A DNA stretch of 64,000 nt from a virus. Its lineage: Duplodnaviria; Heunggongvirae; Uroviricota; Caudoviricetes. Made by a program: the position numbers. The stretch is taken from the IMG/VR virus record IMGVR_UViG_2880366365_000011. One strand, written 5' to 3'. Shown here in pieces: positions 12,001-15,000 of the stretch; positions within the stretch are counted from its first letter, which is position 1; each line of letters opens with the position of its first letter.

Positions 12001-15000
12001 GGTGCCCGCTTTGAGCCGCAGTCAGGCACCCTGAACAGCGTCATCCCTCCGGCAGTGCAGCACCTGACGGTGGAGGTGAGCGCAGCTGACGGTCAGTATC
12101 TGGCGCAGGCGAAATGGGACACGCCGAAGGTGGTGAAGGGCGTGAGCTTTATGCTTCGCCTGACCGTGGCCGCGGATGACGGCAGTGAGCGGCTGGTCAG
12201 CACGGCCCGGACGACGGAAACCACATACCGCTTCACGCAACTGGCGCCGGGGAACTACAGGCTGACAGTCCGGGCGGTAAATGCGTGGGGGCAGCAGGGC
12301 GATCCGGCGTCGGTATCGTTCCGGATTGCCGCACCGGCAGCGCCGTCACAGATTGAGCTGACACCGGGCTATTTTCAGATAACAGCGGTCCCGCGTCTTG
12401 CGGTGTATGACCCGACGGTACAGTTTGAGTTCTGGTTTTCGGAAACGCGGATTACCGATATCAGGCAGGTTGAAACCACAGCCCGCTACCTTGGCACGGG
12501 GCTGTACTGGATAGCCGCCAGTATCAATATCAAACCGGGCCATGATTATTACTTTTATATCCGCAGTGTGAACACCGTTGGCAAATCGGCATTTGTGGAG
12601 GCTGTTGGCCAGCCGAGTGATGATGCATCCGGCTATCTGGATTTTTTCAAAGGAGAGATAGGGAAAACCCATCTGGCTCAGGAGTTGTGGACTCAGATTG
12701 ATAACGGTCAGCTTGCGCCTGACCTGGCGGAAATCAGAACGTCCATCACGGATGTCAGTAATGAAATCACGCAGACCGTCAATAAGAAACTGGAAGACCA
12801 GAGTGCAGCGATCCAGCAGATACAGAAGGTTCAGGTTGATACAAATAATAACCTGAACAGCATGTGGGCAGTGAAGCTGCAGCAGATGCAGGACGGACGC
12901 CTTTATATTGCGGGTATCGGTGCCGGTATTGAGAACACCTCTGACGGCATGCAGAGTCAGGTGCTGCTGGCGGCAGACAGGATTGCGATGATTAATCCTG
13001 CGAATGGCAACACAAAGCCGATGTTTGTTGGTCAGGGCGATCAGATATTCATGAATGAAGTGTTCCTGAAATATCTGACGGCTCCCACCATTACCAGTGG
13101 CGGCAATCCTCCGGCATTTTCCCTGACATCAGACGGAAAGCTGACCGCTAAAAATGCGGATATCAGTGGCAGTGTGAATGCGAACTCCGGGACGCTCAAC
13201 AACGTCACGATTAACGAGAACTGTCGGGTTCTGGGAAAACTGTCCGCGAACCAGATTGAAGGCGATCTCGTTAAAACAGTGGGCAAAGCTTTCCCCCGGG
13301 ACTCCCGTGCACCGGAACGGTGGCCATCAGGGACCATTACCGTCAGGGTTTATGACGATCAGCCGTTTGACCGGCAGATTGTTATTCCGGCGGTGGCATT
13401 CAGCGGCGCTAAACATGAGAGAGAGAGCATACTGATATTTACTCCTCATGCCGTCTGATAGTGCGGAAAAACGGTGCTGAAATTTATAACCGTACCGCGC
13501 TGGATAATACGCTGATTTACAGTGGCGTTATTGATATGCCTGCCGGTCACGGTCACATGACGCTGGAGTTTTCGGTGTCAGCATGGCTGGTGAATAACTG
13601 GTATCCCACAGCAAGTATCAGCGATTTGCTGGTTGTGGTGATGAAGAAAGCCACCGCAGGCATCAGTATCAGCTGAATTTTATAACCCATATACGGGCGC
13701 CAGAAATGGCGCCTTTTTTATTGCAGAAAAGCGAGAGGTAATTATGCGTAAACTTTATGCCGCCATTTTGTCCGCAGCCATCTGTCTGGCCGTATCCGGC
13801 GCGCCTGCATGGGCGTCTGAGCAGCAGGCCACGCTGAGCGCGGGGTATCTTCATGCCCGGACGAGCGCTCCCGGTAGCGATAATCTTAACGGGATTAACG
13901 TGAAATACCGTTATGAATTTACGGACACGCTGGGGCTGGTGACGTCATTCAGCTATGCAGGAGACAAGAATCGCCAGCTTACCCGTTACAGCGATACCCG
14001 CTGGCATGAAGATTCCGTGCGTAACCGCTGGTTCAGCGTAATGGCGGGGCCGTCTGTGCGCGTGAATGAATGGTTCAGCGCGTATGCGATGGCGGGTGTG
14101 GCTTACAGCCGTGTGTCGACTTTCTCCGGGGATTATCTTCGCGTAACTGACAACAAGGGGAAAACGCACGATGTGCTGACCGGAAGTGATGACGGTCGCC
14201 ACAGCAACACGTCTCTGGCGTGGGGGGCTGGCGTGCAGTTTAACCCGACCGAATCCGTGGCCATTGATATTGCTTATGAAGGCTCCGGCAGTGGCGACTG
14301 GCGCACTGACGGTTTCATCGTGGGTGTCGGTTATAAGTTCTGATTAGCCAGGTAACACAGTGTTATGACAGCCCGCCGGTTCAGGCGGGCTTTTTTGTGG
14401 GGTGAATATGGCAGTAAAGATTTCAGGTGTACTGAAAGACGGCACAGGAAAACCGGTAGAGAACTGCACCATTCAACTGAAAGCCAGACGTAACAGCGCC
14501 ACGGTGGTGGTGAACACGGTGGCCTCTGAAAATCCGGATGAAGCCGGTCGTTACAGCATGGACGTTGAGTACGGTCAGTACAGCGTTATTCTGTTGGTGG
14601 AAGGGTTCCCGCCGTCACATGCCGGGACCATCACCGTGTATGAAGATTCTCAACCGGGGACGCTGAATGATTTTCTCGGTGCCATGTCGGAGGATGACGT
14701 CCGGCCGGAGGCACTGCGTCGTTTTGAACTGATGGTGGAAGAAGCGGCGCGTCACGCTGAGGAGGCGAAGAAGAATGCCGGAGAGGCGGAGACGTCCGCG
14801 AGGAATGCCGGCATATCAGCCAGTCAGGCAGAAGAGAGCGCGGCAAATGCTGACACTTCAGCAGGGGATGCATCGGAGTCAGCCCGGCAGGCGGCAGAAA
14901 GTGCAGCCGCTGCAAAGCAGTCAGAGGAGGCGTCCTCGTCCTCGGCCTCTGCGGCCGCTCAAAAAGCCAGTGAGTCATCACAAAGTGCAGCAGATGCTGA

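Follow-up and report, generated by a model that had tools for sequence, protein, structure and literature searches.

The 64,000-nucleotide stretch of viral DNA analysed here, called the window below, carries two prophages, A and B. The region of prophage A that concerns us is 100% identical to the genomes of E. coli O157:H7 strains TW14359, EC4115, and TR01. The window as a whole was rejected as an exact copy of TW14359, from which it differs by an insertion of about 1.3 kb, the size of IS629, at 28259-29567 and by 2 SNPs, differences that have no bearing on the lesion discussed here. The genes that follow the tail module of prophage A, namely lom, a tail fibre gene, an NleG-family gene, nleG7, and an IS256 element interrupted by ISEc8, mark this prophage as orthologous to Sakai Sp12. 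Prophage B, which adjoins ydfJ, is the orthologue of Sp11, with a late region that differs. At the identical locus of TW14359, RefSeq annotates the J gene as “gpJ: phage attachment tail tip protein J, frameshifted” and the gene upstream of it as “phage minor tail protein L, incomplete,” after which no K or I gene follows. The features of prophage A on which the analysis turns are these:

9573-9935, plus strand: remnant of minor tail gene L, its N-terminal 121 codons (RefSeq “incomplete”; split matches)
9936-10197, plus strand: 3' remnant of tail assembly gene I together with the I-J spacer (matches elsewhere lie under “tail assembly protein” features)
10198-13458, plus strand: pseudogene of truncated gpJ, the tip attachment/host specificity protein of prophage A (RefSeq “frameshifted”; Pfam)
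13417-13427, plus strand: (GA)5G dinucleotide tract, GAGAGAGAGAG (read in the sequence; exact 68-mer and 66-mer matches)
13428-13676, plus strand: displaced native C-terminal coding region of J, 82 aa, HTDIYSS...AGISIS (translation, PDB, Pfam, and the Sakai annotation)

The first two of these features meet at a deletion junction, 9935/9936, which was located from matches that split between query positions 236 and 237 and which 213 records share. The deletion (L'-K-I below) took K entirely, the remainder of L, and the greater part of I. The set of tail-tip genes M, L, K, I, and J is thereby no longer complete: L breaks off at 9935, K is gone, and I is represented by its 3' end only.

Within J, the plus strand at the lesion reads AAA CAT GAG AGA GAG AGC ATA CTG ATA TTT ACT CCT CAT GCC GTC TGA, with GGC GCT immediately upstream and TAG TGC GG after the TGA. 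Besides GAGAGAGAGAG the window has no GA run of 11 nt, and 0.01 such runs would be expected from dinucleotide-preserving shuffles. A preliminary description of this DNA had recognized the tract, which is real, and had placed it at 13423-13434, whereas it actually lies 6 to 7 nt further upstream. The same description gave the end of J exactly: the stop codon of the J frame occupies 13456-13458, 29 nt past the tract. The annotated start of J is ATG 10198 and not TTG 10156. The lesion itself is a +2 insertion, from (GA)4G to (GA)5G, which is one GA unit beyond the in-frame allele, and when one GA is deleted a single ORF of 1158 aa runs from ATG 10198 with zero internal stops. The frame downstream of the tract, which continues to 13676, is +2/−1 relative to J as a result of the +2 insertion, and not +1 as had been thought.

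The truncated gpJ is 1086 aa long, and its final 10 residues are out of frame. Pfam domains FNIII-A_GpJ, Phage-tail_3, Ig_J, Ig_J_second, Phage_Tail_Tip, and a partial Ig_GpJ_C are all detected in it above cut-offs. The last of these (PF12421, 135 positions) is split between frames, with profile positions 1-49 in the truncated J and 65-135 in ORF 13461-13676, an ORF whose presence and coordinates had been described exactly. This ORF (GTG start, 71 aa) is the tail of the displaced region and corresponds to Sakai ECs_2233. The homologous part that is displaced amounts to 82 aa, beginning at HTDIYSS, rather than the roughly 70 aa first estimated, and it corresponds to lambda gpJ residues about 1050-1132. 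With the frame repaired, the last 168 aa can be aligned over their whole length with lambda gpJ 964-1131 (PDB 8IYK/8XCJ, E = 2e-39) and with gpJ of phage A8 (PDB 9WCA, E = 3e-62). The break falls in the middle of the receptor-binding domain, at the equivalent of lambda residue about 1049/1050. No single frame encodes that domain intact, as the J frame is lost past residue 1076 and 82 aa are displaced, and because the domain is split across frames we classify the gene as a gpJ pseudogene and not as a functional member of the gpJ group. The J of prophage B, to which the C-terminus had been called homologous, is indeed related, but only 81% identical here; it has no GA tract at the corresponding position and is itself broken into two partial J pseudogenes, and for these reasons it was discarded as a reference for the intact state.

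Two overlapping frames in one gene might also reflect recoding or a split gene, either because ribosomes shift frame by −1/+2 within the overlap at 13419-13455 or because they terminate and reinitiate at GTG 13461, giving a separate 71-aa piece. The layout lends itself to such a reading, in that the GTG sits 2 nt after TGA 13456-13458, the downstream frame is open from 13419, and the original Sakai annotation lists the 216-bp ORF as a CDS of its own, ECs_2233. The details of the sequence, however, make it exceedingly doubtful. No slippery heptamer of the form X XXY YYZ occurs in 13396-13460, where canonical programmed frameshift signals were not found, and no Shine-Dalgarno-like sequence precedes GTG 13461. 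The 71-aa piece, an incomplete half-domain, would be 11 residues short, and what the break interrupts is a receptor-binding domain with a beta-sandwich fold. The two-frame arrangement is also not conserved, homologues being single ORFs, the ancestral orthologues described below included.

The distribution of tract lengths was determined at the population level with short exact queries against 5,426 complete E. coli genomes. The (GA)5 allele, queried as an exact 68-mer, was recovered from 215 records, with O157:H7 in every record inspected, and the (GA)4 allele, queried as an exact 66-mer, from 984 records of diverse pathotypes; nearly all of the remaining matches were also 66 nt long. A (GA)3 tract was found in 4 records of the same genome set and a (GA)6 tract in none. 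Phage records had no (GA)5 either (0/53), and those of VT1-Sakai, the Stx2a phages, and others have the in-frame (GA)4 length. A comparison of tract length in related prophages had been proposed as a check on the locus, and it proves informative: since (GA)4 occurs in 984 diverse records as well as in 53 phage records and (GA)5, in the records inspected, only in O157:H7, (GA)4 is the ancestral, functional state and (GA)5 a derived, lineage-restricted one. The origin by slippage that had been suggested from the nature of the repeat also gains support, as the tract differs by exactly one GA unit from the in-frame (GA)4 of all these records. Short repeats are error-prone on some platforms, and odd alleles do come from possibly error-prone assemblies (strain 1613, with a 10-nt tract, and SCU-484), but an identical (GA)5 stands in 215 complete genomes that many laboratories assembled independently, Sakai, EDL933, TW14359, and EC4115 among them, and it is next to impossible that the allele is a sequencing or assembly artefact at the repeat.

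Orthologous copies of the locus were identified with a 1.1-kb query, a repaired segment specific for this J type. Matches of 100%, all with (GA)4, were obtained in O55:H7 DEC5B, sorbitol-fermenting O157 493/89, and O157:H7 TX 265-1, and strain 1613 was the next match at 99.9%. Among the matches listed, the 5th to the 40th differ from the query solely by a 2-nt gap, and the band of at least 99% identity comprises 174 records. Matches with the 2-nt gap include EDL933, WS4202, 86-24 and its derivatives, TW14359, EC4115, and SS17/SS52, and (GA)5 is likewise found in the J of Sakai Sp12. DEC5B and 493/89 share the context of the window, with the L' junction, J, lom, tail fibre, an NleG gene, nleG7, and IS256 in place, and in both of them J is intact. 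The locus thus has the attributes of a pseudogene in a cryptic prophage, namely intact orthologues (DEC5B and 493/89) and other lesions nearby (the L'-K-I deletion and IS256::ISEc8).

These orthologues also allow the lesions to be ordered. A stepwise model leads from O55:H7 through sorbitol-fermenting O157:H- and glucuronidase-positive O157:H7 to typical O157:H7 (PMC6256406). Because DEC5B and 493/89 already carry the L'-K-I deletion together with an intact J, the tail module was dead before J broke, and under this model the deletion is the first event and the GA insertion a later one on the branch to typical O157:H7. The preliminary description had offered a pseudogenising mutation as one of two readings, with other disabling lesions as the mark of simple decay. 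Such lesions are present, in the truncation of L at 9935 and the deletion of K and most of I, and they predate the frameshift. As the tail module had already been lost, we infer that the J lesion was effectively neutral. Further decay has been lineage-specific and independent: in Sakai Sp12 an added −1 at window-equivalent 11305 splits J into three ORFs, in TX 265-1 an IS3 is inserted between L' and J, and in the glucuronidase-positive strain PV15-279 the Sp12 J is reduced to its last 888 bp, with (GA)4. Sakai Sp12 has L, K, and I intact, so that the argument from an already dead tail module requires, in that lineage, a putative secondary re-acquisition of these genes by recombination.

The orthologous locus yielded three deviating alleles, those of TX 265-1, NCCP 13946, and strain 1613. 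The J of TX 265-1 equals that of the window over all 3.48 kb apart from its (GA)4 tract and is annotated as intact, and the 3.2 kb upstream of it are 100% identical to those of its nearest relative, HB6, which has (GA)5. The simplest accounts of the (GA)4 of TX 265-1 are that the tract contracted secondarily, that a paralogous J supplied a short gene-conversion patch, or that the allele is an artefact of polishing. In NCCP 13946, where the context is Sp12-like, the tract is (GA)3, and strain 1613 has a 10-nt tract from which the final G is missing. Some of the deviant alleles could be assembly errors or products of gene conversion. At a different locus, glucuronidase-positive O157 strains PV15-279 and F3113 carry (GA)5 in an otherwise Sp4-type J adjoining tccP2/tRNA-Ser/hyaA, where about 200 other O157 genomes have (GA)4; either the tract expanded a second time here or it was altered by a conversion patch. 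F8952, which has an intact J behind the same L' junction, was considered as a revertant and rejected. Its J diverges from the window from about 13000 onward, its tract is the interrupted GAGAAAGAG, and the genes downstream are Sp9-like (nleA, nleH1-2, and nleF), a combination that indicates a recombinant J.

A second short repeat lies close by, a C5 run at 13293-13297, 124 nt upstream of the GA tract. In three unrelated E. coli outside O157, (GA)3 is combined with a −1 in this run (C4) for a net change of −3, and J stays open; in the C4 + (GA)3 haplotype, 38 aa of the receptor-binding domain are read in another frame. The (GA)3 alleles were consequently not accepted as simple contractions, as 3 of the 4 also have this compensating −1. 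One of the three compensated cases, SCU-484, comes from an assembly with many neighbouring frameshifts.

Variation of this kind bears on the other reading that the preliminary description had raised, that of a phase-variable contingency locus in which reversible, high-frequency GA slippage toggles J and with it the range of hosts open to particles that the O157 prophage pool produces. The lesion is after all a one-unit change in a dinucleotide repeat, expansion and contraction both occur at the tract (compare (GA)4 in TX 265-1 with (GA)5 in HB6), and (GA)3 alleles exist alongside a second (GA)5 in the Sp4 J of glucuronidase-positive O157. We nevertheless judge phase variation to be very unlikely. 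The tract has merely 5 units (11 nt). Characterised dinucleotide contingency tracts have about 9 or more units, which is about twice this length or more. One tract length is shared by about 98% of the orthologous copies across lineages, and laboratory-derived duplicates agree with one another (86-24 and NADC derivatives; EDL933 and WS4202), which argues for an ordinary short-repeat mutation rate and not for a contingency switch. The same length recurs in about 170 to 215 independent O157:H7 assemblies against the three deviants, and the next longer allele, (GA)6, is absent from the genomes surveyed. An ON state would moreover be useless in cis, given a truncated L and no K or I, and the ancestral ON allele already resided in a prophage without the L C-terminus, K, or I (DEC5B and 493/89). 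Functional phages all have (GA)4. For Sakai Sp12, the functions of host specificity, portal, head, and integrase/integration have all been scored as defective, and the prophage showed no excision, replication, or packaging (Asadulghani et al., PMC2669165). A literature search for a described GA-tract switch in J returned nothing specific. What the locus has in common with contingency loci is a frame-shifting repeat inside an ORF; the tract length, the frequent polymorphism among isolates, and the functional ON product are lacking.

The tract is better regarded as a mild warm spot for slippage indels, with elevated mutability and rare further slips in place of a switch. A larger role can be imagined, in which the GA tract and the C5 run at 13293-13297 together form a recurrent and evolutionarily relevant indel hot spot of the lambdoid J receptor-binding domain, perhaps toggling J alleles that are available in trans to the particles of other defective prophages, or making new receptor-binding segments by compensated double frameshifts. 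We give this proposal a slim chance.

The best explanation for the locus, with a probability of roughly 90%, is a fixed, pseudogenising GA frameshift in the J gene of a defective prophage. The lesion, its ancestral state, its distribution, and the order of events are shown by the comparisons above. Replication slippage, which we infer to be the most likely molecular cause, would have added one GA to GAGAGAGAG, giving GAGAGAGAGAG, inside gpJ codons 1074-1077. Translation now leaves the J frame past residue 1076 (...AKHERE), adds 10 wrong residues, and stops, so that the product ends halfway through its lambda-type receptor-binding domain, without the C-terminal 82 aa. The insertion probably arose once, on the branch to typical glucuronidase-negative O157:H7, at a time when the prophage had already lost the C-terminus of L along with K and I and could no longer build a tail tip. 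Being effectively neutral, the lesion would subsequently have been inherited clonally.

The lesion is already known, being flagged in RefSeq and implicit in the Sakai annotation and the literature, and it has little wider biological weight as another decayed gene in the well-documented pool of defective prophages of O157:H7. Its use is more specific. (GA)5 at the Sp12 locus is a clean derived marker of typical glucuronidase-negative O157:H7, and the order of the lesions (L'-K-I deletion, J frameshift, and lineage-specific hits) makes a tidy case of stepwise prophage decay. The rare reversions or recombinational repairs represented by TX 265-1 and F8952 illustrate how ORFs can be restored by way of paralogous prophages and short repeats, and this bears on the automatic scoring of prophages as “intact” or “defective.”

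Several known systems resemble the locus in part. The programmed −1 frameshift of lambda G/GT, which makes the tail assembly chaperone, likewise involves a lambdoid tail gene with two frames that overlap; unlike it, the J locus has no slippery heptamer and a two-frame layout that its homologues do not conserve. The contingency loci in surface genes of Haemophilus and Neisseria share with it an intragenic tandem repeat in which gain or loss of a unit shifts the frame, both being seen among isolates, but the tract here is far shorter, a single length is fixed in the lineage, and there is no functional ON context. Lambda gpJ (8IYK, 8XCJ) and A8 gpJ (9WCA) have the same series of Pfam domains. Unlike in lambda gpJ, the receptor-binding domain here is cut after lambda-equivalent residue about 1049, which makes lambda-like folding impossible. 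The closest counterpart is the J of Sakai Sp12 (ECs_2233/ECs_2234/ECs_2235), which has the same (GA)5 and the same downstream lom, tail fibre, nleG, nleG7, and IS256::ISEc8, and whose terminal ORF, ECs_2233 (216 bp), is equivalent to window positions 13461-13676. The two differ in that Sakai Sp12 has the extra −1 (window-equivalent 11305) and intact L, K, and I, whereas the window has the L'-K-I deletion and the GA insertion as the sole lesion of J.

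A single tract length separates J, the tail tip attachment gene of prophage A (the Sakai Sp12 orthologue), from an open allele in the typical O157:H7 strain TX 265-1, in which the sole difference is a (GA)4 tract in place of the window's out-of-frame (GA)5, so that the full ORF is restored. HB6, the nearest relative of TX 265-1 among those sampled, has (GA)5, and the (GA)4 of TX 265-1 is an apparent reversion, conversion patch or polishing artefact. At this TX 265-1 locus, an IS3 element has also inserted between the truncated minor tail gene L' and J. The loci compared with the window are listed here in their own coordinates.

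TX 265-1 (L015, NZ_CP038290.1), 4599-8075: Sp12 J, equivalent to window 10198-13676
F8952 (L009, NZ_CP038349.1), 5809-9285: intact hybrid J, behind the L' deletion junction as in the window
C25 (L008), 3900-4064, with SCU-484 (L007) and UID2309220031 (L020): C4 + (GA)3 J haplotype, equivalent to window 13293-13297 and 13417-13427
PV15-279 (L006), 2810-6287, and F3113 (L018), 3613-7088: Sp4-type J with (GA)5, adjoining tccP2/tRNA-Ser/hyaA
NCCP 13946 (L019), 4001-4064: C5 + (GA)3 tract in an Sp12-like context
Strain 1613 (L016), about 7817-7827: tract in an Sp12-like context
Sakai (L012), 13918-19764: Sp12 tail region, compared with window 9573-10197

The J ORF of F8952 is "repaired" by inter-prophage recombination. 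This hybrid gene is of Sp12 type up to window-equivalent ~13000, from where it continues into an Sp9-like 3' end containing the interrupted tract GAGAAAGAG, and it is followed downstream by Sp9-like lom, nleA, nleH1-2 and nleF.

Three unrelated non-O157 E. coli (from cattle in Russia, a human in the USA and blood in Thailand) have in common a J with C4 rather than C5 and (GA)3 rather than (GA)4. Together the two differences amount to -3, and the reading frame therefore stays open; PGAP annotates the gene as intact in 2 of the 3 strains. This haplotype is a naturally circulating compensated double frameshift that changes the frame of ~38 aa in the receptor-binding domain, with one L/R position in the translated stretch.

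Tract variation also extends to the Sp4-type J, which has (GA)5 in glucuronidase-positive O157:H7 PV15-279 and, in the same context, in F3113; at this site the allele is (GA)4 in Sakai and in ~200 further O157 genomes. The Sp12 J remnant of PV15-279 has (GA)4, unlike its Sp4-type J, and the (GA)5 of the Sp4-type gene reflects either a second expansion, independent of the first, or a short patch of gene conversion. The PV15-279 Sp4-type J bears an additional +2 indel at window-equivalent 10826. The tract of strain 1613 is GAGAGAGAGA, 10 nt in length and without the last G; this allele and that of NCCP 13946 both leave J out of frame, and each may reflect either genuine slippage or an error of assembly.

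The preliminary description had noted homology of the J C-terminus to copy B, the J of prophage B (the Sp11 orthologue). This copy cannot serve as an intact reference, because it consists of two abutting partial pseudogenes, which sum to ~4.08 kb versus 3.48 kb in a normal J.

Window 53673-57751: prophage B "J" as a whole
Window 53673-55184: N-terminal part
Window 55184-57751: C-terminal part
Window 28636-29526: 296-aa ORF of IS629/IS1203 OrfB size

Two further genes of prophage B are damaged, the portal gene by a frameshift and the major capsid gene by truncation. The 296-aa ORF lies within a ~1.3-kb insertion relative to TW14359 (window 28259-29567), and the source of the window is thus a TW14359-like strain with one additional IS copy in the prophage B early region.

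In Sakai, the Sp12 J has an extra -1 at window-equivalent 11305. L, K and I are intact in Sakai Sp12, and because the L'-K-I deletion is common to the O55:H7, sorbitol-fermenting O157, EDL933-type and TW14359-type orthologues of Sp12, the sequence comparison suggests that Sakai re-acquired these three genes through recombination with a paralogous prophage.
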